From the IMG/VR virus record IMGVR_UViG_3300042922_000210, positions 1 to 42,176 of that record: 42,176 nucleotides of DNA; one strand, written 5' to 3'. Of the stretch, positions 1,692 to 41,307 are shown in pieces; position 1 is the first letter of the stretch, and each line of letters opens with the position of its first letter. The stretch is from a virus. The notes beneath the pieces were generated by a model that was not told where the DNA came from, searched no databases, and saw only the letters and a program-made list of their open reading frames with translations. A program made the position numbers and the translations under genes.

Positions 1692-1707
1692 GGTCTGTCT
1701 TCCTCCC

Positions 1708-1857
1708 CTACCAATGTTTTCTAAACTCTGATCCTTTGTGCTTTCCACATTTGGTGCAGATGTTATAGATTCGATCACCACTAAGATTCTGGAACTTTGT
1801 TTGTTTGATATGCGGCTGATAGTCGTGTTTGCAAAATAGTTGTTTAAGCCAGTTCAT
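1708..1857 (-). CDS. small Cys-containing protein (49 aa, CKHD...CTKCGKH), not in ORF track
   Basis: My translation: MNWLKQLFCKHDYQPHIKQTKFQNLSGDRIYNICTKCGKHKGSEFRKHW. Weak RBS AAAGGAAC. Confidence 0.45.
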   Translation of the reverse strand: MNWLKQLFCKHDYQPHIKQTKFQNLSGDRIYNICTKCGKHKGSEFRKHW

Positions 1858-1882
1858 GGGTTGTTCCTTTCTTTATGGGGAG

Positions 1883-1956
1883 CCAGATAAGCCATAAACC
1901 CTTATCCGGCCCCCGTTATCACTGGGATTATTCGGTCTGACTCGATGGCCTCCGGC
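1883..1956 (-). repeat. conserved intergenic element, copy A (50-nt core 1907..1956 plus 9-bp hairpin 1883..1909)
   Basis: Minus strand GCCGGAGGCCATCGAGTCAGACCGAATAATCCCAGTGATAACGGGGGCCG starts right after the stop at 1957. The CCGGATAAG/CTTATCTGG hairpin has a G-U pair valid only on the minus-strand RNA. Confidence 0.6.
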
Positions 1957-2244
1957 CTAATCCTTCATATGGTCCTTTATCCGTGCTTTTGGCAGACGCA
2001 TTACGGCGAATGCTCCAAAGTCCGTGAGTGCTCCCTCGCCTTCTATCGCATCTTCAGGAATCCATATCTCACATTTGATACGGTAATACCCCTTGTGCTT
2101 TCCTGACTTGCTAGGTGCGTGCGTTGACATGTTTCCTACGAATGGCGCCAATACCATCATGCTGTCTTCGTTAACTTTCTTAATTTCATCCATTGCCGTT
2201 CCTACTGTTTCCTTGGTGACACCAAAGATGACCGCTTTGCTCAT
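1957..2244 (-). CDS. hypothetical protein (95 aa)
   Basis: ORF track; packed against neighbours on the same strand. Confidence 0.65.
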   Translation of the reverse strand: MSKAVIFGVTKETVGTAMDEIKKVNEDSMMVLAPFVGNMSTHAPSKSGKHKGYYRIKCEIWIPEDAIEGEGALTDFGAFAVMRLPKARIKDHMKD

Positions 2245-2444
2245 ATCCTCTTCTCCCCCTCAACTTCCTTCTGAGTCATTTTCCTTCCAAACCTCCGATA
2301 TGCACCCAACATTGCCGCCATACACCCTTTGTGACCACCATAGAACTTTGTTGTTTTATAATCTCCTGTATGCTCAAGCGTGCAGCTGTACATTTTATTG
2401 AAGTCCATCTCTTCTTCGCAATAATCACATTTGCACTCGTTCAC
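2241..2444 (-). CDS. hypothetical Cys-rich protein (67 aa)
   Basis: GTG start 7 nt after GGGGGAG; CxCxxC near the N-terminus. Confidence 0.6.
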   Translation of the reverse strand: MNECKCDYCEEEMDFNKMYSCTLEHTGDYKTTKFYGGHKGCMAAMLGAYRRFGRKMTQKEVEGEKRI

Positions 2445-2458
2445 TCCTCTTCTCCCCC

Positions 2459-2611
2459 TTATACCTCTTCGTAGAGTTTTAATTCATGAAAGATTCCAGT
2501 CTCTTCGATTGCTTCTTTCAGATCCTGCACGGCTTCCATGTAGCAGTCAGGTATGTTTGGATATTCGACCATGATCTTTCCGTTTAGAAATAATCCAATT
2601 TTCTTTGCCAT
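2459..2611 (-). CDS. hypothetical protein (50 aa)
   Basis: ATG at 2611 after AAGGGAGAGGA. The ORF-track start at 2680 has no RBS. Confidence 0.5.
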   Translation of the reverse strand: MAKKIGLFLNGKIMVEYPNIPDCYMEAVQDLKEAIEETGIFHELKLYEEV

Positions 2612-2643
2612 CGTGTATCCTCTCCCTTTGGGGTAAATTAGCG

Positions 2644-2684
2644 TAACAACCAAATTCCTTAATTTCCGGTAATTTAACAACCAA
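2644..2684. repeat. two direct TAACAACCAA repeats 31 bp apart flanking AATTtCCGGtAATT
   Basis: Copies at 2644-2653 and 2675-2684 inside a 168-bp intergenic gap. Confidence 0.5.
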
Positions 2685-2702
2685 GCAGTTGTCTCTGCCC
2701 CC

Positions 2703-2780
2703 TTATAAGTTAAGTACCAGACCTTATACGGCCTCCGCTACGCTTAGCTGATTCAGTCGATATGGAGGCCTGACGGCCGT
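2703..2780 (-). repeat. degenerate copy D of the conserved element (GGCCTCC/GGAGGCC 7-bp hairpin plus TATAAG/CTTATA hairpin)
   Basis: Shares the ccttata-cggcc-ccg and tcagtcgat-atgg blocks with copy A; starts at the stop codon at 2780. Confidence 0.4.
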
Positions 2781-3166
2781 TATAAGTTCAGTGCTGCTAT
2801 TAGTGCAACCTTGCAAATTGCATCAGGCGTTGTTTTGCACATAACCTCTTCAAATGCAAGTCCACTGGCTGTTGATGGGTATACAATAGTGTAGCCTGAT
2901 TGATGTACGTATATATTTAGGTTGAATCCAAGGATCCTCATCTTTTCTACAACTATCCATGCTGCATCAATGTATTTTGAAGGCTGCCATTCATCTGGAT
3001 AATGAACATTTTCATATTTGATTCCTTCACGGTAATAAAACTCATGATATGATTGGTCCCATATATATTCCTTCTTGATTTCGTATCCCATAACATGAAC
3101 AGATACCCATTGATCTAATTGAATTCCTGGCGGCTCATTTAGTATCTCTTTCCTTGTGAGTGTCAT
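2780..3166 (-). CDS. phage ABA-sandwich (DUF2591-like) domain protein (128 aa)
   Basis: LDQWVSVHVMGYE...WQPSKYIDAAWIVVEKM...TPDAICKVALIAAL matches the family pattern from memory. TAATG start/stop overlap at 3166 after TGGGAGGAAG. Confidence 0.55.
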   Translation of the reverse strand: MTLTRKEILNEPPGIQLDQWVSVHVMGYEIKKEYIWDQSYHEFYYREGIKYENVHYPDEWQPSKYIDAAWIVVEKMRILGFNLNIYVHQSGYTIVYPSTASGLAFEEVMCKTTPDAICKVALIAALNL

Positions 3167-3381
3167 TAGGCTTCCTCCCAATCTTTAGGGTAGTTGAAAT
3201 AAGCATAATGACTTACTGTGCGTTGGAAGTATATGGTTGATTCCTCATATCCTTCATGAAAAAACCATCCATGATCCGCATCAAATTTAGCTTGGTGTGT
3301 TAATCCATTAGCCAGGATAAGGTATGTTTTACCTTCAAGCTCTTCGCTTTCATACATATTGAACTTAATCCAGTCAATCAT
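3166..3381 (-). CDS. hypothetical protein (71 aa)
   Basis: ORF track; ATG after AAGGGAGGA. Confidence 0.65.
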   Translation of the reverse strand: MIDWIKFNMYESEELEGKTYLILANGLTHQAKFDADHGWFFHEGYEESTIYFQRTVSHYAYFNYPKDWEEA

Positions 3382-3400
3382 CGTTATATCCTCCCTTAGT

Positions 3401-3490
3401 GGGAGAGGAGGGTTACTCCTACTCCCTTAATGATCTGTTTCGGCCCCCGGATACGCCTGGGTTTATGCTGTCGGACGATGTCCTTCGGCC
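3401..3490 (-). repeat. conserved intergenic element, copy C (core 3441..3490 plus bulged hairpin 3401..3426)
   Basis: Minus strand GGCCGAAGGACATCGTCCGACAGCATAAACCCAGGCGTATCCGGGGGCCG, 13 nt after the stop at 3504. Confidence 0.55.
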
Positions 3491-3503
3491 AATTGCATCA
3501 GGC

Positions 3504-3677
3504 TTAAATTTTTTCCAACTCGCTGTGGTAAAAGAAAAATCCAGGATGTTCTATCAAATTGTATGTGTACCGAGTAATACCCCTGCCCATTCTAGTAAGC
3601 GACCATTCGTTTATCGTGACGGTTTCTCCCGTTTTCTTTAACCGGACCTTTTCCCCATCTTCAAAGTGTTCTGACAT
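3504..3677 (-). CDS. hypothetical protein (57 aa), not in ORF track
   Basis: My translation: MSEHFEDGEKVRLKKTGETVTINEWSLTRMGRGITRYTYNLIEHPGFFFYHSELEKI. RBS AGGGGG. Confidence 0.5.
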   Translation of the reverse strand: MSEHFEDGEKVRLKKTGETVTINEWSLTRMGRGITRYTYNLIEHPGFFFYHSELEKI

Positions 3678-3876
3678 TTGTATCTACCCCCTGATTTGCG
3701 CGTACTCTCGCAATCTTTTGTTTGCAGCCAACCCTACGCCATCCGAGAATATCACCGTAATACCCTTCAATATGTGTCTTGGTTCGACCATACTTATCTG
3801 TAGGATCACCATAATCTCTGTAAGGACGTCCATCTATTAATACCTCTATGCAAATATCATCAATGGTCAATTGCAT
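3661..3876 (-). CDS. hypothetical protein (71 aa)
   Basis: ATG at 3876, 7 nt after GGAAGGAG. Confidence 0.5.
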   Translation of the reverse strand: MQLTIDDICIEVLIDGRPYRDYGDPTDKYGRTKTHIEGYYGDILGWRRVGCKQKIARVRANQGVDTNVRTL

Positions 3877-3905
3877 ACTCAGGCTCCTTCCTGCACCATA
3901 TGCGT

Positions 3906-4277
3906 CTACCGCTTACTACTAAGCGTGATATATGCCGCCTCTGCCCTCTCCCTGGGGCTGGCGAGGTGTAAATCTGCGGCTCCGATAAGAGATAACTCCG
4001 TCATTTCCGCAGCGTCTTGTCTAACCCATCTGACTGCAGCTAGGTTACGCATGTACTTTTCGGCATCTTTTACTATGGCTGCTGTTTGTACCTCTAGAGA
4101 GGCAGCAGGATCAGTGCTAGGGCTGAAAAACCTCAATCCGTTGAGTCCTTTAGCGTCTACATATCTCACTACAAGTTCATGGCTGAGACTAAATTCTTCG
4201 GCGTATATTTCGTATCCGCATAATTTAGCAAGTGCCACATCAATCTGTTTGTTGCTCCATTCCTGTACCTGTGTCAT
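3906..4277 (-). CDS. hypothetical protein (123 aa), possibly a second ABA-sandwich-like paralog
   Basis: ORF track; ALAKLCGYE...SPSTDPAASLEV resembles 2780..3166 loosely. Confidence 0.55.
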   Translation of the reverse strand: MTQVQEWSNKQIDVALAKLCGYEIYAEEFSLSHELVVRYVDAKGLNGLRFFSPSTDPAASLEVQTAAIVKDAEKYMRNLAAVRWVRQDAAEMTELSLIGAADLHLASPRERAEAAYITLSSKR

Positions 4278-4450
4278 TGGGCGTCCCTCCGAATCTCGGC
4301 CAGCGAATGGAACGTCTGCCGCTTGATGTCCTCCAGTAGCTCAAATATCTGATGTGGCGTCTTGCCCTTCTCAGCCATATTTGCCATTGCCGCCACGATT
4401 AACTGATGGTCAAGATTATTTAAATCAAGGCTCTGCTTCTCCTGTGTCAT
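4274..4450 (-). CDS. hypothetical protein (58 aa), not in ORF track
   Basis: ATGA overlaps at both ends (4450 and 4277). Translation MTQEKQSLDLNNLDHQLIVAAMANMAEKGKTPHQIFELLEDIKRQTFHSLAEIRRDAQ. Confidence 0.55.
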   Translation of the reverse strand: MTQEKQSLDLNNLDHQLIVAAMANMAEKGKTPHQIFELLEDIKRQTFHSLAEIRRDAQ

Positions 4451-5031
4451 GGCTGTATCTCCCCTAGAGCAGCTCGGGCTACCGATCTGAAATACTTGCC
4501 TGTGGTTGGAGCAGGCCTGTGTGCGATATCATCCAGCGCCTCCCGTTGCCGGGCTATGGTCTGCCTTGCTTCAAATAGCTCCAAGCCCTTCTCTTTTGAG
4601 ATATTGTCTGCTGCCTTCTGTGCACTTTCTCTGCTTAATTCCAGTTTCTCTATATATAATCGCTTCCGGGCTATGGTCTGTTGTGCCTCAATCAGTTCTT
4701 TTGTGTCCTCGTCAAATAGATTTTTTAGCCTTTCTATCTCCTGTTGTGACTCACGGTGCGCCCTGGCTAGTACACTGTGTTTATTAAGGAGCGAATCGTA
4801 CTCACCGCGACTTACGCAGAAACCTTGAAGCCCTTCATATGCCGCATACGCCAGTTCTGCTTGTTGTTGTGCCTCTTCTAGAGCAGCCAGCGCCCTGTTC
4901 AAGTCTCTGCTTTCTCCGCCTAAGTAGCTGCACATGCTGTCGAACACGGACATGATGCCCATTGAAGCGCCTTGATGTTCTAATTCAGTTCTGAACATTA
5001 TGCATGTTGATTTTAGAGTTTCTGGTGTCAT
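4447..5031 (-). CDS. coiled-coil protein (194 aa)
   Basis: ORF track; repeated EAQQ..IAR.. heptad-like segments. Confidence 0.7.
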   Translation of the reverse strand: MTPETLKSTCIMFRTELEHQGASMGIMSVFDSMCSYLGGESRDLNRALAALEEAQQQAELAYAAYEGLQGFCVSRGEYDSLLNKHSVLARAHRESQQEIERLKNLFDEDTKELIEAQQTIARKRLYIEKLELSRESAQKAADNISKEKGLELFEARQTIARQREALDDIAHRPAPTTGKYFRSVARAALGEIQP

Positions 5032-5034
5032 GGT

Positions 5035-5304
5035 TTACTCTCCTTCGTTGTTAGAGGATGTCAAAGCAGCTCTTGCGATTCCCCCGCCATCAAGCATTAC
5101 TTTGGTTGGTTCCACATTACGGTATTCGTTCAATTTCCAATCGTGGTTTTTCTCGTCTGCGTAGAAAGATAGGGCTTTGTCCTTTTCTTCTAGGAGAGAA
5201 ATTAGGTAGGAAACATCGTTGTAATATTCATCTGCTTGAACGTACTGGTCTCGCAAGTTTTTCATTTCTTTGTGCGCTTCTTTGATCTCTGTTAGTTTAT
5301 TCAT
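5035..5304 (-). CDS. hypothetical protein (89 aa)
   Basis: ATG at 5304 overlaps the upstream stop (ATGAATAA). The longer track start is R/K-rich read-through of the conserved element. Confidence 0.65.
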   Translation of the reverse strand: MNKLTEIKEAHKEMKNLRDQYVQADEYYNDVSYLISLLEEKDKALSFYADEKNHDWKLNEYRNVEPTKVMLDGGGIARAALTSSNNEGE

Positions 5305-5584
5305 AGGAACCCCCGGTACGGCCCCCGGCTTGCGCCTGGGTGATTTCGGACGACTCGATGTCCTCCGGCAAAACCTCTTTCTTCGCCCATTGTGCGAACC
5401 AGCCAAAACCAACTACTTTTGATAGTCCCGTTTCAACCCCACCAATCAAAACGTTATACTTTACTCCTTTTGGATATATGCATCCGTATCCATCGTGCAT
5501 ATTTCTTGATATCGCTACAATTTTTCTAATCTGTCCCTTTCCATTGCTGTATAACTTTCCTACTTGAATGTCTGATCCTTTCAT
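5297..5584 (-). CDS. hypothetical protein (95 aa)
   Basis: ATG at 5584 after GAGAGGGTG. The last ~24 codons coincide with element copy G. Confidence 0.6.
   Translation of the reverse strand: MKGSDIQVGKLYSNGKGQIRKIVAISRNMHDGYGCIYPKGVKYNVLIGGVETGLSKVVGFGWFAQWAKKEVLPEDIESSEITQAQAGGRTGGSYE
5319..5369 (-). repeat. conserved element, copy G (inside the 3' end of CDS 5297..5584)
   Basis: Minus strand GCCGGAGGACATCGAGTCGTCCGAAATCACCCAGGCGCAAGCCGGGGGCCG. The first 18 nt differ from copy A at a single position. Confidence 0.55.
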
Positions 5585-5650
5585 TCCCTTCACCCTCTCA
5601 CCTTCTGTGTGCCCCGTAAAGCGCTTGATCGATCATACCTTCCCAGACCA

Positions 5651-6496
5651 TCAATCAACGAACACCGTGTCCTCTGTGACCTGCTCATTGCTTGTGATCG
5701 TGATTGTGGATGCTTCTCCCGGCTCTAAAACGATACTTGCTACGGAATATCCTTTGGTGATATTAAAATCACTGACGAATCCTTTCTTATACACCAGATG
5801 GTCTCCTGTCCATTCCCATTCATTATTGAACTGTGGATACTGCCTGCTCTCATATTTCACTTTCGAAGGAGCGACCGTCTTCAGCAGCGCCTTGCGTCCC
5901 ACATAGTCAATCTCCCGATATACTGGATGTGCTGCTGTAAATTCAGCGTACAATTCTGGTAAAACTTCTTTGAGGTGTGCTAGGAATAATGGAACTTCTT
6001 TCTTCTGATACTGGTCGATAGTTCCCCCCATTAATGCCTGCGGCTGGAACGTGCACAATCTGTGGATTAGATTAACATTGAATAATTTCATTGGTATGAA
6101 TGCATTTTTATCATTGAAAAATCCGGGGTTTGAAATGGATACATTTTCTTCCTCGACCTTGATCGAAATAAATGGGTACGGATAGACGACATAATCTCCA
6201 ATAACCCCTAATTTCCTTGGCGGTGATTTAAGCTTCCCGTACATTTCATGATTTTCCCATTGGCTCCGAAACTCTCCGTATTTTTTCGCTCGACTGGTGT
6301 ATCCCGTGACAGAATTCTCTCTGCCAAACTTGCAACTTCCACCAAATGGTGCACGAACAGTCAAACAAGTTCCGGATTTATAGTAAGAGCACTCTTCGTG
6401 TTTATCACAATTGATTATGCTGGCTTCCAACGGAGTCTCTTTCCCGCCAAATAGCCCCTTGCCGCCATATAGTCCTACATGAATTGTCTCGCTCAT
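5651..6496 (-). CDS. hypothetical protein (281 aa) with N-terminal Cys cluster
   Basis: ORF track; RBS AAGGGAGGAAACAGGG. CDKHEECSYYKSGTC...GGSCKFG; no family recognised. Confidence 0.75.
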   Translation of the reverse strand: MSETIHVGLYGGKGLFGGKETPLEASIINCDKHEECSYYKSGTCLTVRAPFGGSCKFGRENSVTGYTSRAKKYGEFRSQWENHEMYGKLKSPPRKLGVIGDYVVYPYPFISIKVEEENVSISNPGFFNDKNAFIPMKLFNVNLIHRLCTFQPQALMGGTIDQYQKKEVPLFLAHLKEVLPELYAEFTAAHPVYREIDYVGRKALLKTVAPSKVKYESRQYPQFNNEWEWTGDHLVYKKGFVSDFNITKGYSVASIVLEPGEASTITITSNEQVTEDTVFVD

Positions 6497-15791: not shown

Positions 15792-16031
15792 TTATGCTGA
15801 AATGTTCGTTTTTCGAGCGTTTGAATTAAAAAAAATCTGTTCAATTGGTTTTTTTAATGTTCGAGATATGCGATATGCAACATGCAATGAAGGGTTATAT
15901 TCTCCCCTTTCAATGTTACTAATTAATGCTCTTGATATGCCAGCAAGTGTCGCCAACTCTTCTTGAGTTAGCTTCATTTCCTTGCGAGCATTGATTAAAC
16001 TCGTTAACGGTACTAGATTTTTTTTAGTCAC
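15792..16031 (-). CDS. Cro-like XRE-family repressor (79 aa)
   Basis: MKLTQEELATLAGISRALISNIERGEYNPS. GTG at 16031 follows AAAGGGGG (7-nt spacer). The track start at 16052 lies in the operator. Confidence 0.8.
   Translation of the reverse strand: MTKKNLVPLTSLINARKEMKLTQEELATLAGISRALISNIERGEYNPSLHVAYRISRTLKKPIEQIFFNSNARKTNISA
15802..15821. promoter_or_regulatory. distal operator-like site (atgTtcgtttTtcgagcgtt) inside the 3' end of the cro-like gene
   Basis: 18 of 20 positions identical to the two operators at 16051 and 16088. Confidence 0.5.
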
Positions 16032-16050
16032 TGTTAAACCCCCTTTCTTC

Positions 16051-16070
16051 ATGCTCGTTTATCGAGCGTT
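16051..16070. promoter_or_regulatory. operator (atGCTCGtttatCGAGCgtt, 5-bp inverted arms)
   Basis: The first 19 nt recur verbatim at 16088-16106; lies at or just downstream of the predicted early transcription start. Confidence 0.6.
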
Positions 16071-16082
16071 GCTTATGGGTTT

Positions 16083-16111
16083 ATTATATGCTCGTTTATC
16101 GAGCGTGTCAA
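16083..16111 (-). promoter_or_regulatory. early promoter: consensus TTGACA-17-TATAAT with an operator filling the spacer
   Basis: Minus strand TTGACAcgctcgataaacgagcaTATAAT (-35 at 16106-16111, -10 at 16083-16088). Confidence 0.7.
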
Positions 16112-16191
16112 TACTTTTTAGCTCGATTTTCAAACGTTTATTATACGAGCATTTTGCTGTAATATTAAAACAAATACAAGGAGTGGTTAAA

Positions 16192-16611
16192 TTGCCTAAT
16201 AGACCATTTAAGGAAATATTGAAAGAACTTAGGGAAAGGAGAGGACTTACTCAAGAGGAACTTGCAGCAGCATTAGATGTGCCAGCATCTTCAATAAGAA
16301 GATATGAATCAAATAATGGAGACCCAAGAAAAGAGCGAATGAATAAAATAGCCGATTATTTTAATTGTTCAGTTGATTACTTACAGGGAAGAACAGAAAA
16401 CCCAGAGCAGGTCCTGTCGGAACCATCCCGGGTTTTAATTGATTCCTTGGACCTTACAGATGAAGAGATCATAGCAAAAATGGACTTTATCGTGGATGGG
16501 ATAAAGTTGGATGACGAAGACGTAAGAAGGTTTATTGCACTGGTCAGGGCCGAACGGTCTATGAAGAAACAAGTTCCTGCGGTTCAAGGCGCAAAAGAAG
16601 ATAAGCTTTAA
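16192..16611 (+). CDS. CI-like XRE-family repressor (139 aa)
   Basis: TTG at 16192, 8 nt after AAGGAG. LRERRGLTQEELAAALDVPASSIRRYESN plus a C-terminal domain; divergent from the cro-like gene. Confidence 0.8.
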   Translation: MPNRPFKEILKELRERRGLTQEELAAALDVPASSIRRYESNNGDPRKERMNKIADYFNCSVDYLQGRTENPEQVLSEPSRVLIDSLDLTDEEIIAKMDFIVDGIKLDDEDVRRFIALVRAERSMKKQVPAVQGAKEDKL

Positions 16612-16841
16612 TGTACTCAGGCTTCATGTCCAGGGGGCTCATTGATTCAATACCTTGCAATATGCGGCTTGTCCGTACTCCTAGCTCTTCCAACGTTTGT
16701 CTTGTTATGTCCATCTTTACCTTGTCCATTGAAACAACCCCTTAGAGTTTTTACAGCGATGATCCGTTAATATTACCACATCACTGGGCATTACGGAATG
16801 TATGTTCGTATTTTAAATAAAAAAATATAGGTGACATCGAC

Positions 16842-17768: not shown

Positions 17769-19253
17769 GTGAAAGCAGGTATATACATCCGGGTATCCAC
17801 GGACGAGCAAGCAGCTGAAGGTTTCTCGATTGACGCACAGAAGCGCCGTCTGCTGGCCTACGCCGATTCTCAGGACTGGGAAGTATCAGATGTATACATT
17901 GATGATGGATGGTCCGCGAAGGATCTGAAGCGCCCTGAGATGCAGCGTATGATCAAAGACGTGGAGATACATGCTTTTGACGTGGTGCTCGTGTACAAGC
18001 TTGACCGCATGACCCGGTCCGCCAGTGACTGTGACAATCTTATTAAGATGTTCGAGTCCCACAATGTCAAGTTTCAGAGCTGTACGGAGTCGTTTGAGAC
18101 GCGCACGGCGACAGGTAGACTATTTATCCGCCTCGTGGCCGACATCGCTCAGTGGGAGCGTGAGAACACGGCAGAGCGTGTACGCATGGGTATGGAGCAA
18201 ATGGTGCACGAGGGACGGCGGCCGGGCGGTCCGGTTAACTTCGGGTATGACAAGAATGAAAAGCTTGTCCAAGAGGAATATACACAGAATAGGCTGGTCA
18301 GGAAATTTTACCTGGAGGGATTGGGGTTAAAGGGAGTGGCAACCAAACTGAACGATATGGGACTGCTTCGGCGCGGGTATCGGTGGACATCCTTCAGCGT
18401 TTGGTATGTACTGGACAACCCTTACTATGCCGGTAAACGGAGATATGGGTCCAAGAAAGCAAACGGCAAGTACACAAATCGCAAGATGGAAGAGCAAGTG
18501 GATGTGCTGATTGTGGATGGTCCACAGGATTTAACCTTTACCTGGGAAGAGTATTTGGAACATAAGGAAGAAATGAAGCGCCGATCATTCACCGGACACT
18601 CAAAGGTTCGGGAATACTGGTTCTCCGGTGTGCTGAAGTGCAGCAAGTGCGGGGGCAAGATGTCCGGACGGTACCACCAGAACAAACGCCAGGATGGCAG
18701 CTACAATAAGATCCTATCCTATATCTGTTCCGGCCGGCAGACGGGGAAAGGATGCACCATGCCGATGTTCCGCCAGGAGTTAGTGGAGTCGTTGCTGCTG
18801 GAATGGATTGGTGAAAGGTTATCCACAGATTATTCAGCTATCCGGGAACTGGCCGCAACTGCAGAAGAAGATCCGGTCGTTGATCTGCGCAAGGACTTGG
18901 CGAGGGAGCTTGAAAAGGTCCGGGACCGGCGCAAGAAGTGGCAGCGCATGTACGCCGATGATCTGATCTCTCAGGAGGAACTGCGGGATCACAACGCTGA
19001 TGAGAAGCAGAATGAGGAATTACTGATGGCAGAGCTTGCAAAAATGCCGGACGTCCACATAGAGGATTATGCAGAGCAGAACGAAATCCTGTTTGGCCTA
19101 CCGGAAGTATGGGACCAGATGGACGATGTGGATAAGCACGACATGATTCTGGATATCTTCAAAGAAATTACGTTATACACACCTCTTGAGAAAGCACATG
19201 CCCGAAAAGGTAAGTTCATTCCGGCATCCATTCAGAGTGTTATTTTCAATTAA
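17769..19253 (+). CDS. int: large serine recombinase (integrase)
   Basis: IYIRVSTDEQ...YKLDRMTRS resolvase domain, recombinase domain and CSKCGG...C zinc ribbon. GTG after AAGGAGTG. Confidence 0.95.
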   Translation: MKAGIYIRVSTDEQAAEGFSIDAQKRRLLAYADSQDWEVSDVYIDDGWSAKDLKRPEMQRMIKDVEIHAFDVVLVYKLDRMTRSASDCDNLIKMFESHNVKFQSCTESFETRTATGRLFIRLVADIAQWERENTAERVRMGMEQMVHEGRRPGGPVNFGYDKNEKLVQEEYTQNRLVRKFYLEGLGLKGVATKLNDMGLLRRGYRWTSFSVWYVLDNPYYAGKRRYGSKKANGKYTNRKMEEQVDVLIVDGPQDLTFTWEEYLEHKEEMKRRSFTGHSKVREYWFSGVLKCSKCGGKMSGRYHQNKRQDGSYNKILSYICSGRQTGKGCTMPMFRQELVESLLLEWIGERLSTDYSAIRELAATAEEDPVVDLRKDLARELEKVRDRRKKWQRMYADDLISQEELRDHNADEKQNEELLMAELAKMPDVHIEDYAEQNEILFGLPEVWDQMDDVDKHDMILDIFKEITLYTPLEKAHARKGKFIPASIQSVIFN

Positions 19254-37916: not shown

Positions 37917-38105
37917 TTACTCACCTTCTTTCTGTGCGCCTAGCCACTCGGCCACGATACTTTCAACTTCCTGTTTGACCTCCGGTGGTGTCGGCTTCAC
38001 TTCGCCTATGAATTCGCGCATCTTCGCATTGATTAGTGCGGTTGTCTCTTCCTCCAGGTTTGGCAACTTAAGTAGCTCACCAAGGTCTGCGGCCTCTTTT
38101 ACCAT
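37917..38105 (-). CDS. hypothetical protein (62 aa)
   Basis: ORF track; wedged between terL and portal. Confidence 0.6.
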   Translation of the reverse strand: MVKEAADLGELLKLPNLEEETTALINAKMREFIGEVKPTPPEVKQEVESIVAEWLGAQKEGE

Positions 38106-39574
38106 GCTAAGTAATCACCTCCGGTGGGTTCGTCTGTGCGGAATGGGAACGGTGTGACAGGTGTTTCTATCGCCTTCTGCAGCAATCTACTTTCCTGCTG
38201 TCCTCGGCTGTAATAAGCAATCGCAAGGGCCATGATCAAATCATCATGAGCGCCTTCTTGTGCCTGTGGTCGCCCTTTCTCGTTGCGTACAAAGGTCAAC
38301 ATCTCGTTCAGCGTATCGATATCGTTGATAAGGTTCACGGACTCACGTACGATCTTCACTAGTTCAGCTATTGCCGAAGGACGGGTAAGCTTATCTGTTC
38401 GGAAGCCATACGCTTTGGTAATGGAACCGGTGAATGTATCCTCGCGCTCCCGGATGTACTGATTCGTATACTCAAGTCGGCTGAGTACCTTAACCGGATG
38501 GCTGCTGAAATTGGTTTCAATGCTCTCCAGCGCGTAATTGTAATGCTTTCCTAGGCAATACATCTGCTCTGCATACAAATCCTCGTCAAACTGGTTCTTA
38601 TACACGGCTGATTGCCTGCCTGTGACGTTGTTGATCACTTGGCCTATAAAGTTATCCGATCCATCACCAGCCGTGTCACCGCCGATTACATAAGGTGTCT
38701 GCGACTGCGGTCTCTCAAATAACTTGATATACCCGTTGTCGTCCTCAATCCACTTGATAGTGCTGTCCATGATCTTATCTGCAGCATCTTTCTGATAAAC
38801 AAAATACCCTCGCTGCACCAATGGATCATGGTCGCGAAGGTATGAGATGCGCTCACTTACTTTCTGAGCGTTGAATATGGTCTTACCAAGCACTCCCCAT
38901 TCTCCAAGCGCGTACACCTGGTAGAAGTATGGGTCGGTCTCCCTGAACGCCTCCAGCACCTTAATGGCTTCATCGTCCAGGAACTTATTGTGCTTGTATG
39001 TGCTGTGGATCGTAGTGGCGTTTGGCTTGGGTTGATCGAAGAATTCTTTCTTCAGCCAATGGTTGATGTCAATCGGGTTAAAGGTGATCATCATCTGCTT
39101 GTAATTGATATGCTTGCCACGTAACCGGATATCTAGCTGCCTGAAGTCTTCCGGTGAACACTCGCTTGCTTCTTCCATCCAGACGCTGGTGACACCTGAA
39201 ATGGACTTAAGCTTCTCTACATCATCCAATCCAGCAAATAGGATCTCATTGCCGTTGATGCAGCTTATGTGCAGTTCTGAGCTCGTTCCTTTCGGAATCT
39301 TGAACAGCTTTTCCAAGCCCCACCGGTATATCGCGTTCTTAAGCTCCATAAACACCGATTCACGCAGCGTCTTCGCTACCTTACGTAGTACGAGGATACG
39401 GTGCTTCTGTTCAGTCAGTAGCCGGAAGATGATCTTCTGAGCCGTAAACACCGACTTACCCGAACCGCCGCCGCCCATCAGCACCAAGTATCTATCCTTA
39501 TTCATGTAAAGGGGATAGAACCGATCATTCGTAAGGTTCGGCAACTCGGTTAAGTCGATGTTAATTGTCGGCAT
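38099..39574 (-). CDS. terL: terminase large subunit (PBSX family)
   Basis: Walker A YLVLMGGGGSGKSVF; C-terminal nuclease GGDTAGDGSD...AHDDLIMALA. Confidence 0.95.
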   Translation of the reverse strand: MPTINIDLTELPNLTNDRFYPLYMNKDRYLVLMGGGGSGKSVFTAQKIIFRLLTEQKHRILVLRKVAKTLRESVFMELKNAIYRWGLEKLFKIPKGTSSELHISCINGNEILFAGLDDVEKLKSISGVTSVWMEEASECSPEDFRQLDIRLRGKHINYKQMMITFNPIDINHWLKKEFFDQPKPNATTIHSTYKHNKFLDDEAIKVLEAFRETDPYFYQVYALGEWGVLGKTIFNAQKVSERISYLRDHDPLVQRGYFVYQKDAADKIMDSTIKWIEDDNGYIKLFERPQSQTPYVIGGDTAGDGSDNFIGQVINNVTGRQSAVYKNQFDEDLYAEQMYCLGKHYNYALESIETNFSSHPVKVLSRLEYTNQYIREREDTFTGSITKAYGFRTDKLTRPSAIAELVKIVRESVNLINDIDTLNEMLTFVRNEKGRPQAQEGAHDDLIMALAIAYYSRGQQESRLLQKAIETPVTPFPFRTDEPTGGDYLAW

Positions 39575-40055
39575 CTGGGGTCAATCCTTTCGGTAAGGAC
39601 ACTTTTATGTTGAGTTCACCTTCTATGCCAAGCTCTTGCTTATCTCTCCACTGCTGCGGCTTACGGTTCTTCAGCCAGAAGATTTGAGCAGTAGTATCTG
39701 GTACCACTTGCTTACGAACAATCTTTGTTACAGCCACTTTTGGAGTTCCGTCTGGATTTAATATAGGATCACCCAGCATGTTATATAGAGGTTCGTGTGT
39801 GATTTCATCAAATTCATATCCAAGAGCCCGTTTGTACAAAGAATTCTCGACAATCGCGTCTGCAAATTCCCTATTCCTTTTTAAGGCCTCTAACAACTCA
39901 GGATATTTTTTTTGATACTCATACATACTTGCAGCAGAAACCTCTAGGTTAGCCGCGATATCTTCAACAGTTAATCCGTCCCTGCACCATGCCTCAATGA
40001 GCAGGAGTTTCGGTTCAACGTTGGAATGGTACTTGCTTGGTCTGCCTCCTGCCAT
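39561..40055 (-). CDS. terS: terminase small subunit
   Basis: MAGGRPSKY...GLTVEDIAANLEVSAASMYEYQKKYPELLEALK...SLYKRALGY. ATG at 40055, 6 nt after GGGAGGTG. Confidence 0.8.
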   Translation of the reverse strand: MAGGRPSKYHSNVEPKLLLIEAWCRDGLTVEDIAANLEVSAASMYEYQKKYPELLEALKRNREFADAIVENSLYKRALGYEFDEITHEPLYNMLGDPILNPDGTPKVAVTKIVRKQVVPDTTAQIFWLKNRKPQQWRDKQELGIEGELNIKVSLPKGLTPDADN

Positions 40056-40145
40056 TGTGTTCACCTCCCTCTAATCTAACTTAATTGCGCTATAATTCAC
40101 GCCTATTTTCGATTTACAAAGTATAACACTCGTAATTTCGGAGAC

Positions 40146-40364
40146 TTATACTGTTGTAGTCTGCGCATTTGCGTCATATCTCGCCTGTGATGGCTTAGTT
40201 GATATATACGTTTGGCCGTCTCCCGGATACGTTACGGCGCCACTCAGTGGTGATCCAATGCTTGTTGCTGCGCCAATAGGCTTTACTCCCACTGGTTTAA
40301 GCTGCTGATACTTCATAATTTCCTCTGGCGTACCTTCAACCGTTCCATCTGGATGTAGTTTCAT
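40146..40364 (-). CDS. hypothetical protein (72 aa), first gene of the packaging operon
   Basis: ORF track; RBS GAGGTGGTGAG. Confidence 0.65.
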   Translation of the reverse strand: MKLHPDGTVEGTPEEIMKYQQLKPVGVKPIGAATSIGSPLSGAVTYPGDGQTYISTKPSQARYDANAQTTTV

Positions 40365-40392
40365 CTATCTCACCACCTCGATCACTATAGTC

Positions 40393-40422
40393 ATCATAAT
40401 GATAAATATAATAGATAAGTAA
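40393..40422 (-). promoter_or_regulatory. candidate promoter TTACTT-18-TATGAT for the packaging operon
   Basis: Read on the minus strand in the AT-rich 120 nt between terminator and ATG 40364. Confidence 0.3.
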
Positions 40423-40441
40423 TACTCTGAATGCCTCATTG

Positions 40442-40479
40442 CGGCCCCCGTTTCACTGGGTAATTCGGTCGAATCGATG
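40442..40479 (-). repeat. conserved element, copy B (immediately 3' of the leader terminator)
   Basis: Minus strand CATCGATTCGACCGAATTACCCAGTGAAACGGGGGCCG. Confidence 0.55.
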
Positions 40480-40486
40480 CAGAGAT

Positions 40487-40520
40487 AAAAACAAAAAAGG
40501 CAACGGCGTATACCGTTACC
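40487..40520 (-). terminator. strong intrinsic terminator ending the ORF-free leader
   Basis: GGTAACGG-tatacg-CCGTTGCC followed by TTTTTTGTTTTT. Confidence 0.85.
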
Positions 40521-40875
40521 TCTTGCAGATTCAGCGCGCCCTAAACCCCGTCATGCGCGTGCACTCGGCCCCTTGATGCTTTGCCTTGTGTTTCCCTTTT
40601 ATGCCCGATCCCTGTAATCCCATAGGCCGACCGGCGTTATCACTATGAGATAGCCCACAAGTACTAAGCTAAGCATAGCTTAACCGTCATAACGTACATG
40701 CAGGCCTATATGCAAACCATCCCCAACATCGAAGTGTGCGCATTAGCGCGTTATGGATGGGTGTTGCTAAAATGTAGCGCCAGTCTCCCAGCGCCAAGGG
40801 GTAGGAGTGAATCATCCAAGTGATGGGAATCGGCGATAGGGGCAGTCCCCGGGTCACTGATCGCCAATTCCTCAT
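40487..40875 (-). ncRNA. candidate structured non-coding RNA / late-operon leader of about 390 nt, class unknown
   Basis: No credible ORF in a 523-bp gap and visibly GC-richer than its flanks. 12-bp helix GGAAUUGGCGAU/AUCGCCGAUUCC (40826-40871), further helices, terminator at the 3' end. Confidence 0.45.
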
Positions 40876-40881
40876 ACTACT

Positions 40882-40890
40882 ATAATATCA
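40882..40890 (-). promoter_or_regulatory. extended -10 (TGaTATTAT) overlapping the stop codon of 40888..41307
   Basis: Read on the minus strand; would start the leader near 40875. Confidence 0.35.
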
Positions 40891-41307
40891 CGATGCATTT
40901 GTACTTTGTGTATCCTTTTTGTATCCTCTTTTGTAGCAATAAGTGCGAATATGGCTTTCACTGTAGCCTAATTCCATTGCAATTTCCTTGTACTTTTTAC
41001 CTGCAAGTCGTCTGCTTTGGATCATATTTTCCAGTCCGGTGAACTTAGCAATCTCCACGTCCATGTCATTCTTCATCTTCTGCACACGGTCGATCTCTTC
41101 CCGGATGCATTCCAATTCATGCTGTTCTCTCTCAATCTTCTCCAGCCCTTTATCTAGAGAGATATGCACGTATGGCCCTGATGATGGCATGCTGCCGATT
41201 ACTGTGTACTTATATGCCAACTCAACTCTTCGCTTGACTTCCTTTTCCCTGAGACGAAGTATCTGCAGCTCCGCACACGTATCAGCGTATGACTCCTTCC
41301 AGTTCAT
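40888..41307 (-). CDS. putative late-gene transcriptional regulator (sigma-70 region-4-like HTH; ArpU/RinA-like size and position)
   Basis: 139 aa; C-terminal RRLAGKKYKEIAMELGYSESHIRTYCYKRG; located just upstream of terS as in many Bacillota phages. Confidence 0.5.
   Translation of the reverse strand: MNWKESYADTCAELQILRLREKEVKRRVELAYKYTVIGSMPSSGPYVHISLDKGLEKIEREQHELECIREEIDRVQKMKNDMDVEIAKFTGLENMIQSRRLAGKKYKEIAMELGYSESHIRTYCYKRGYKKDTQSTNAS

Follow-up and report, generated by a model that had tools for sequence, protein, structure and literature searches.

A recurrent intercistronic element with two covarying hairpins and an invariant linker in phages of Paenibacillaceae

How temperate phages of Gram-positive bacteria apportion expression among the small genes between their replication and late modules is poorly understood, and so is the way in which their genomes are reshuffled exactly at the borders of genes. 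Both questions are raised by IMG/VR virus record IMGVR_UViG_3300042922_000210, whose 42,176 nucleotides (positions 1 to 42,176; the whole stretch of DNA analysed here, hereafter the window) carry a short element that recurs at the 3' ends of genes. The original prediction, made from the sequence alone, described four strong and three weaker copies of ~50 nt in a single orientation, which fitted no nameable class and could be either a cis-acting RNA or a DNA site for a phage regulator. Here, covariance-model searches and comparative alignments reveal that these copies belong to a real family of elements of about 60 nt. The motif is undescribed and specific to Paenibacillaceae phages, its general kind (repeated cis-regulatory elements, phage gene boundaries) being known, and it probably acts as RNA on the gene strand.

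Results

A covariance model (R1), built from 39 homologous copies and run unfiltered over both strands of the whole window, returned exactly five matches, all on the minus strand, which is the gene strand (Table 1); the next best match reached 11.5 bits (E 0.48). The four strong copies of the original prediction, A, G, C and B, were all recovered where they had been placed, and the pattern CCCAG-N4-14-GGGGGCCG matched at 1907-1926, 3441-3461, 5319-5340 and 40442-40460, on the minus strand each time, as compared with no match in 100 dinucleotide-preserving shuffles. Copy D, formerly listed as weak, is a real diverged copy because it scores 42.6 bits against the 11.5 bits of the next match; two other weak candidates, named E (40649-40619) and F (16781-16796), were not among the R1 matches and are not supported.

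Alignments of the family copies resolved two small hairpins, P1 and P2, around a nearly unchanging single-stranded linker. P1 is an optional hairpin of 4-5 bp that starts at the upstream stop codon; it usually reads GGCC-GAA-GGCC, with GCGGC/GCCGC, GCATC/GATGC, CGGCG/CGCCG, GCGC/GCGC, GGCG/CGUC and CAGC/GCUG as other stems, and is missing from the copies of the late type, to which copy B belongs, and from most of the copies that are inverted relative to their genes. The linker, (C)AUCGA-n2-4-CGACCGAAU, comprises ~20 invariant, single-stranded nucleotides composed of three tandem pentamers, AUCGA-(n)UCGA-CCGAA, and is followed by 2-5 variable, mostly A/U bases. P2 (6-8 bp) has a CCC/GGG base, an A-G mismatch, 2-5 variable pairs and a tri- or tetraloop, and leads into a tail, G-GCCG, which is often followed by (G/U)AUA(A/G)GG. 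A short variant keeps P1 and the linker and has a GGC-GCGA-GCC tetraloop hairpin in place of P2 and the G-run (four copies; Table 1), indicating that the indispensable core of the element is the linker displayed between two hairpins.

The pairing of both hairpins is supported by covariation. P1 forms a hairpin of 4 bp or more in 54% of copies, as against 9% of shuffled flanks, and at least seven different compensated stems were observed. In P2, the pair 56-87 is CG in 40 copies, UA in 20 and GC in 13; the pair 55-88 is GC in 69 and AU in 5; and the pair 50-91 is CG in 51, UA in 12 and UG in 4. Overall 87% of the P2 cells are paired, relative to 76% in shuffles, the covariation score was reached by none of 500 shuffles, and sliding the register lowered the paired fraction to 40-59%. 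G-U wobbles appear solely when the element is read on the gene strand (16 cells in P2; GGCC/GGCU eight times in P1). Taken together, the covariation of P1 and P2 and the restriction of G-U pairs to the gene strand indicate that a sense RNA (or a sense single strand) folds, rather than a duplex-DNA site or a cruciform. The suggestion of a cis-acting RNA of no nameable class is thus borne out by the compensatory pairing, by the strand-specific wobbles and by the lack of an Rfam match; its alternative, a duplex-DNA site for a helix-turn-helix (HTH) regulator of the phage, is weakened by the covarying hairpins and by a linker that stays invariant across unrelated regulators (17% identity). A GGAC/GTCC stem around the CATCG block, read earlier from copies G and C, did not hold for the family, in which the conserved 5' hairpin is GGCC-loop-GGCC or a compensated variant of it and lies upstream of CAUCG.

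Two further pairings, a pseudoknot between the linker and the 3' GCCG (CGACC with GGCCG) and a mini-helix UCG..CGA, were considered on alignments judged by eye. Isolated variants only (L037, L122 and L078:5007; such numbers denote individual loci or contigs) gave support, covariation was not consistent, and neither pairing is claimed. The window was also searched for an antisense partner that could pair with the linker in trans, and nothing exceeded chance.

Beyond the window, R1 detected 81 copies in 41 phage or prophage loci that total 384 kb, typically 2-5 copies in a locus of 8-14 kb, and the element recurs 3-6 times per phage genome; the hosts belong to Paenibacillus, Cohnella, Gordoniibacillus and Gorillibacterium. 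Pattern scans covered IMG/VR and one genome per species (185,579 species genomes). A first, loose pattern gave mostly chance matches in high-GC contigs, from which true copies were sorted by GC content and the remaining motif; the complete motif was found only in low-GC contigs and, among the species genomes, at only 23 loci, spread over 19 Paenibacillaceae genomes (14 Paenibacillus, 3 Cohnella, Gordoniibacillus kamchatkensis and Gorillibacterium sp.). Strains with the element include Paenibacillus amylolyticus PAE5, Paenibacillus sp. SN-8-1 and P. xylanexedens DSM 21292. Phage genes flank the motif in all 11 of the species-genome loci matched by protein probes. When the linker 17-mer was the sole constraint, 12 of 13 viral matches carried CGGGGGCCG after P2 and the thirteenth carried CGAGGGCCG; the pattern thus did not itself create the 3' block. 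Hidden Markov models of the two half-motifs, run separately to count solo halves, added no more than a single clear 3' half standing alone, in L146, and two further inverted copies.

Comparison with known sequences returned no explanation for the copies. Rfam 15 gave no match at the gathering threshold anywhere in the window and, at E<=10 over 1700-5600 and 40300-41000, only unrelated weak chance matches; ARAGORN found no tRNA or tmRNA in the window; neither megablast nor blastn, run with the region and with the A cassette on 50,697 GenBank phages, detected similar DNA; and a literature search for a described Paenibacillus phage motif found none.

About 34 of ~60 sense copies begin -1 to +13 nt from an in-frame stop codon, and in the window the distance from the stop to the start of P1 is -1 nt for A, +1 nt for D and +13 nt for C, in agreement with the earlier placement of these three copies at stop codons. 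Copy G, in which P1 is degenerate, is embedded in the final ~24 codons of ORF (open reading frame) 5297..5593, again as predicted, and its orthologues L046:8276 and L033:4366 likewise lie within ORFs; a second G-run 3' of copy G is the Shine-Dalgarno site of the next gene. Upstream ORFs without a stop before P1 were also seen in L155 (4335-4395), L231 (4698-4757), L152 (6079-6128) and the window (5315-5377); they cross P1 and the linker in one frame (..PKAIExTE) and end at the linker UAA/UAG, or later in the case of copy G. A read-through or coding explanation was rejected, as the frames differ between copies and ORF entry into the motif is not consistent.

Copies fall into types that are conserved between phages. 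Orthologues of copy D are found in L078 and, truncated, in L146, and the shortened linker of copy C, CAUCG--UCCGACAGCAUAAA, recurs in L057, L046, L135 and L114. Each type has its own conserved downstream hairpin. Of the different hairpins said to lie between copies A, C and D and the next ribosome-binding site (RBS), those of A and C were reproduced as strong hairpins in minimum free energy (MFE) folds, and that of D was not confirmed. Behind copy A, a 14-bp hairpin reuses the G-run and GCCG of the element and is thus mutually exclusive with the base of P2; the RNAalifold consensus of eight A-type orthologues gave the same pairing. Behind copy C, the hairpin that precedes the RBS of ORF 3166..3381 is kept together with the C-type copy in L057 and L046.

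The genomic setting is likewise shared. The window is a circularly permuted, temperate siphovirus-like genome whose ends are contiguous in contig L232. Its early promoter is followed by genes for Ant, YqaJ/RecT, HNH, YopX, a DnaD-like protein and DnaB; small ORFs then occupy the stretch up to RusA, and it is in this stretch that copies G, C, D and A are placed. Downstream of these, a gene for a regulator resembling sigma-70 region 4 is followed by a non-coding region of ~360 nt, a 13-bp terminator (40495-40524), copy B, a gene of 72 aa (40146..40364), terS (39561..40064) and terL (38099..39574). Copy B is without P1, and its linker begins 15 nt past the terminator stem, right behind the T-run. 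The same arrangement of copy B is repeated in L073, L200, L223, L008, L206, L065, L007 and L120, and the synteny as a whole, with copies downstream of DnaB and upstream of RusA and the regulator and one between the regulator and terS, recurs in other loci. Across them the linker remains identical although the late regulators differ (window-type and L076-type share 17% identity and have different HTH domains), and it is invariant despite unrelated flanking genes and hosts from four genera.

Orientation was next compared between copies. The original observation of a single orientation is correct for the window and fails for the family: 69 of 81 copies are co-oriented with their genes and about 12 are inverted, none of them in the window. 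In inverted copies it is the P1 side that abuts the RBS and start of the next gene, and most of them pair with a downstream sense copy so that 1-3 small genes are bracketed (Table 1). Their P2 stems contain Watson-Crick pairs only, so the folding strand is not revealed. The gene bracketed in L124 encodes a 368-aa radical-SAM protein, and in L080 two copies stand tail-to-tail about 40 nt apart.

Similarity between phages is often restricted to the motif and the spacer to the next start codon, with unrelated genes on either side; it reaches 95% over 109 nt in L206, and matching blocks occur in L057 and L046. Of its D-type copy, L146 retains P2, the spacer and the RBS together with the downstream gene, P1 and the linker having been lost; this places the module joint exactly between linker and P2. 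The 95-aa gene at window 1957..2244 recurs in identical form, along with its A-type copy, in L234 (27227-35514 of SRR22971175_124896), but there it stands directly after a YopX gene, whereas in the window it lies behind the ORFs that follow copy D; this is a clear case of cassette mosaicism.

Table 1. Coordinates of the copies of the element and of associated features (window positions unless a locus number is given)
Feature	Location	Strand	Description
Copy A	1903-1964	minus	R1 75.3 bits, highest of five
Copy A, stop codon	1959-1957	minus	TAG of ORF 1957..2244; its G is the first P1 base
Copy A, P1	1957-1947	minus	GGCC-GGA-GGCC
Copy A, linker	1946-1927	minus	AUCGAGUCAGACCGAAUAAU
Copy A, P2	1926-1911	minus	CCC-A-GU-GAUA-AC-G-GGG
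Copy A, tail	1910-1907	minus	G-GCCG
Hairpin, 14 bp	1878-1914	minus	GGGGGCCGGAUAAG / CUUAUCUGGCUCCCC; MFE fold; reuses copy A G-run and GCCG
Copy D	2725-2785	minus	R1 42.6 bits, E about 1e-8; diverged
Copy D, parts			P1 GGCC-GUCA-GGCC; linker CCAUAUCGACUGAAUCAG; P2 CUA..GGAGG; tail GCCGUAUA
Hairpin	3401-3426	minus	GGGAGUAGGAG-UAAC-CCUCCUCUCCC; MFE fold; between copy C and RBS of ORF 3166..3381
Copy C	3437-3497	minus	R1 50.7 bits
Copy G	5315-5377	minus	R1 49.7 bits
Xre-type repressor	15982-16611		
Early promoter	16111-16083	minus	Consensus
Large serine integrase	17769-19253		Only recombinase in the window
Copy B	40438-40499	minus	R1 53.6 bits; late type
Intrinsic terminator, strong	40495-40524	minus	13 pairs, then TTTTTTGTTTTT; directly upstream of copy B
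Sigma-70-region-4-like regulator gene	40888-41307		
Short-variant copies	L146:6467-6516; L033:2623-2673; L231:5723-5772; L152:6079-6128		
Inverted copies	L224:2423; L224:4497; L124:1224; L152:6332; L032:6263; L212:7694; L020:4815; L135:355; L135:3920; L231:4402; L155:4587		
Inverted/sense brackets	L224 1840-4561; L124 69-1285; L152 6079-6392; L135 355-640; L032 6263-6565; L155 4335-4651; L231 4402-4757; L020 4815-5286; L080 435-576		

The surroundings of copy B yielded several side observations. The ~360-nt non-coding region (40525-40887, minus strand) folds with an MFE of -151 kcal/mol (z = -3.0; none of 100 shuffles was as good), holds a long inverted repeat around GGGGACTGCCCC and has no Rfam match. 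The GGGGACTGCCCC repeat resembles CGACTGCCC, the cohesive end of P. larvae phages, and the region may be a cos region rather than the 'leader RNA' it had been called. Only the N-terminal ~240 of the 491 terL residues align to phage records, none of which covers 80% of the protein; the best match, at 60% identity, is to Thermoanaerobacterium phage THSA-485A. A 16-kb Logan contig with identical late genes (L233, SRR35185192) begins at window position 40391, 27 nt upstream of the 72-aa gene and 7 nt past TATGAT, with TTACTT at 18 nt before; this start could be a transcript start or a mere assembly break in AT-rich sequence. In general, the ends of Logan and JGI contigs with the neighbouring genes gave no interpretable RNA-end signal. 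Elsewhere, a 281-aa protein of the early region (5651-6496) had no Pfam or PHROG match in searches, and for a 331-aa ORF that spans the window ends (L232 567-1562) no precomputed Pfam family is on record.

Discussion

Since both hairpins covary and their G-U pairs are confined to the gene strand, we consider it likely that the element works as RNA on that strand, with a probability of roughly 0.65-0.7. More tentatively, it may serve between cistrons as a signal for RNA processing or stability that a conserved host factor reads; as a structured RNA acting in cis, it would punctuate long polycistronic phage transcripts. The element is transcribed within its operon, and P1 and P2 fold and display the linker. 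That the reader would be a factor conserved across Paenibacillaceae is suggested by the identity of the linker next to unrelated late regulators; the likeliest candidates are a host endoribonuclease or an RNA-binding protein, self-cleavage being less likely. The transcript would then be cut or marked between linker and P2, so that the upstream cistron would end at P1, just past its stop codon, and the downstream cistron would start with P2 as a 5'-terminal protective hairpin ahead of the spacer hairpin and the RBS. The copy behind the terminator and before the terminase genes would play the same role for the late message. Bacillus mRNAs are stabilised by 5'-terminal stem-loops, and T7 and SP82 use conserved intercistronic processing hairpins. 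A processing role would account for the position at stop codons, for the module boundary in L146 and for the type-specific downstream hairpins.

Several points weigh against such a role. Folding energies of single sequences are no better than those of shuffles. Cleavage at the element is purely inferred, and the nuclease or binding protein that would read the linker is a candidate only. The late-type copy is placed where Gram-positive phages should have their late promoter (PMC3753634), the stronger downstream helix of A-type cassettes competes with P2, as would be expected of a switch rather than of a simple site of cleavage, and the roughly 12 inverted copies are not accounted for by a sense-RNA processing signal and are explained well by no reading.

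The strongest rival to the processing signal, though one we consider rather unlikely, is that the element serves middle or late transcription as a promoter or as a leader close to one. RNA polymerase, with a specificity factor from phage or host, would then recognise the linker as DNA; the new transcript would carry P2 as its 5' hairpin, and the preceding unit would have P1, or a real terminator, as its 3' hairpin. Such a 'stem-loop plus promoter' cassette would resemble those of T4-type phages. In Gram-positive phages the ltr gene is followed by a terminator and then by the terS promoter (PMC3753634), and copy B and its late-type orthologues occupy this place of an Ltr (RinA/ArpU/LtrA)-dependent promoter: copy B and at least nine orthologues, ten copies in all, start 0-5 nt after a strong terminator and downstream of the sigma-70-region-4-like regulator gene, in L073-type loci only the motif and ~38 nt lie between terminator and start codon, and in L076 a gene transcribed divergently, together with its promoter, precedes the late-type copy. 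A promoter could also stand in either orientation, but transcription from inverted copies would run antisense to the 3' end of the neighbouring gene. Moreover, no sigma-A-like site (-35/-10 hexamers at 16-18 nt) overlaps any copy, and manual comparison found no consensus spacing for sigma-D, sigma-H or extracytoplasmic function (ECF) factors, the -35 spacing being wrong or variable for GCCGATAA in the tail (sigma-D), RNNGAAT in the linker (sigma-H) and CGAC (ECF). The distances between conserved blocks vary by up to ~14 nt, and the window copies differ by indels, as already noted; a terminator follows within 3-16 nt in three or four copies (L140, L120 and L122); and the strand-specific G-U pairs of P1 indicate selection as RNA. 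Four of the five window copies are kilobases away from terS, copy B itself lies ~360 nt from the ltr stop and beyond the terminator, and the linker is invariant across late regulators that are unrelated and have different HTH domains. A processive antitermination or elongation-control RNA of the lambda nut or HK022 put kind is a quite unlikely alternative, in which the nascent motif, with or without a phage protein, would modify RNA polymerase so that terminators further on are read through and the long operons completed. The architecture of two hairpins and a conserved linear block, the terminators just downstream of the copies in L140, L120 and L122, the location of G, C, D and A upstream of the sole strong terminator between the early promoter and the late genes, the copy at the head of a late operon of >20 kb and an invariant sequence suited to a conserved target such as RNA polymerase all speak for it. 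Nut (boxA and boxB) and put sites likewise join a conserved linear block to a hairpin of variable stem and act in cis on nascent RNA in a phage-specific way, but they occur once per operon just past the promoter and upstream of terminators, do not adjoin stop codons, are not known to be inverted and share no sequence similarity with the element; nor would there be a reason for such sites to stand next to stops, to number 4-6 in an operon or to be turned round. None of the five window copies is near the early promoter, the late-type copy comes after its terminator and not before it, gene and protein searches found no N-, Q- or NusG-like gene, and readthrough from the early operon would bypass the late regulator.

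A DNA-level joint or recombination site that delimits exchangeable gene cassettes, either through a single-stranded DNA fold (attC/REP-like) or as a homology patch for RecT/YqaJ, is unlikely in our judgement. The mosaic joints at the motif in L206, L057 and L146, the relocated 95-aa gene with its A-type copy in L234, inverted copies that flank 1-3 genes (such as the radical-SAM gene of L124), the tail-to-tail pair in L080, the constant orientation of the P1 side towards a gene end, and the RecT and YqaJ exonuclease encoded by the phage are all consistent with it. However, paralogous copies within a phage are far more diverged than orthologues between phages, which gives no sign of recent transposition; no target duplications were found in the inverted pairs read, no recombinase is associated with copies, host chromosomes are without copies outside prophage-like regions, and second-order selection for recombination would keep up neither compensated hairpins nor a 20-mer without variation. 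Sites of the integron attC kind and REP/BIME elements likewise stand at ORF 3' ends, often over the stop codon, form arrays between small genes and fold strand-specifically with conserved unpaired bases, but the element, far more conserved than attC, has two separate hairpins rather than a single long imperfect palindrome and is without an IntI or RAYT gene, the only recombinase being the large serine integrase; the core sites R''(RYYYAAC)...R'(GTTRRRY) are absent from its consensus. Its 23 loci in 19 of 185,579 species genomes, and a single copy without terminal inverted repeats, also set it apart from REP, BIME and MITE families. A translational coupling or accessibility switch, in which the G-run would pair with the CCC of P2 or with C-runs adjacent to the RBS and so link a stop to the next start, is very doubtful. 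It is favoured by the start of P1 at the stop codon, by the pairing of G-run and GCCG with the downstream CUGGCUCCCC as a conserved 14-bp helix that excludes the P2 base in the eight A-type cassettes, by the C-type GGGAG../..CUCCC hairpin that adjoins the Shine-Dalgarno site, and by the G-run Shine-Dalgarno sites of the genes that follow G-type and D-type copies; but the next start codon is about 10 to >200 nt away, the downstream partners vary by cassette type, short variants are entirely without the G-run, a terminating ribosome would not reach P2, and the invariant linker is left unexplained. Highly improbable, finally, is a new small class of self-cleaving ribozyme that would insulate or punctuate phage operons, with the linker, the A-G mismatch of P2 and the G-run as a catalytic core and a cut in the variable linker-P2 spacer that would leave a hairpin-capped downstream message with a 5'-OH: hammerhead, twister, twister-sister, pistol, hatchet and HDV-like models gave no Rfam match even at E<=10, and inspection revealed no CUGANGA/GAAA core, no loop pseudoknot and variable loops. 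Restriction-site decoy or avoidance was rejected, as GGCC, CCGG and TCGA are not depleted elsewhere in the genome.

Among known systems the element is most like the intercistronic signals of T7 and SP82 or the T4-type PeSL (promoter-early stem-loop) cassettes, and it fails the defining features of every family tested. The RNase III sites of T7 and Bacillus phage SP82 are likewise several co-oriented, sequence-conserved structured elements between cistrons, and they leave hairpins at new RNA ends, a likeness that here depends on the supposed cleavage. They are, however, long irregular duplexes (~20 bp) cut by RNase III, whereas P1 and P2 have 4-5 and 6-8 bp and flank a single-stranded linker, and some copies are inverted. 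PeSLs are likewise repeats of ~50-70 bp that flank small variable ORFs in a hyperplastic region, mark mosaic joints and bring a stem-loop and an expression signal together, but they have a recognisable sigma-70 early promoter, whereas the element has no detectable promoter consensus and occurs in temperate siphovirus-like phages of Gram-positive hosts. The stoperators and SAS/ESAS of mycobacteriophages are also multi-copy, orientation-biased and located at gene boundaries of one phage group, with a function that is partly unknown; they are duplex-DNA sites of 13-17 bp or start-proximal and have no covarying hairpins, in contrast to the stop-proximal, structured element of about 60 nt. P2 is not an intrinsic terminator, as it is followed by GCCG(G/U)AUA and not by a U-run, and a terminator scan found none on the minus strand at A, C, D or G, the terminator at 40495-40524 being separate and upstream of B.

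The element is a clean candidate for a new Rfam family. A signal of ~60 nt that does not vary among phages of four or more host genera must have a conserved reader, for which an RNase, RNA polymerase, the ribosome or the RNA itself are candidates, and it marks both mosaic joints and the head of the packaging operon. If it is indeed a processing or insulating signal, it would be usable for building operons in Bacillales.

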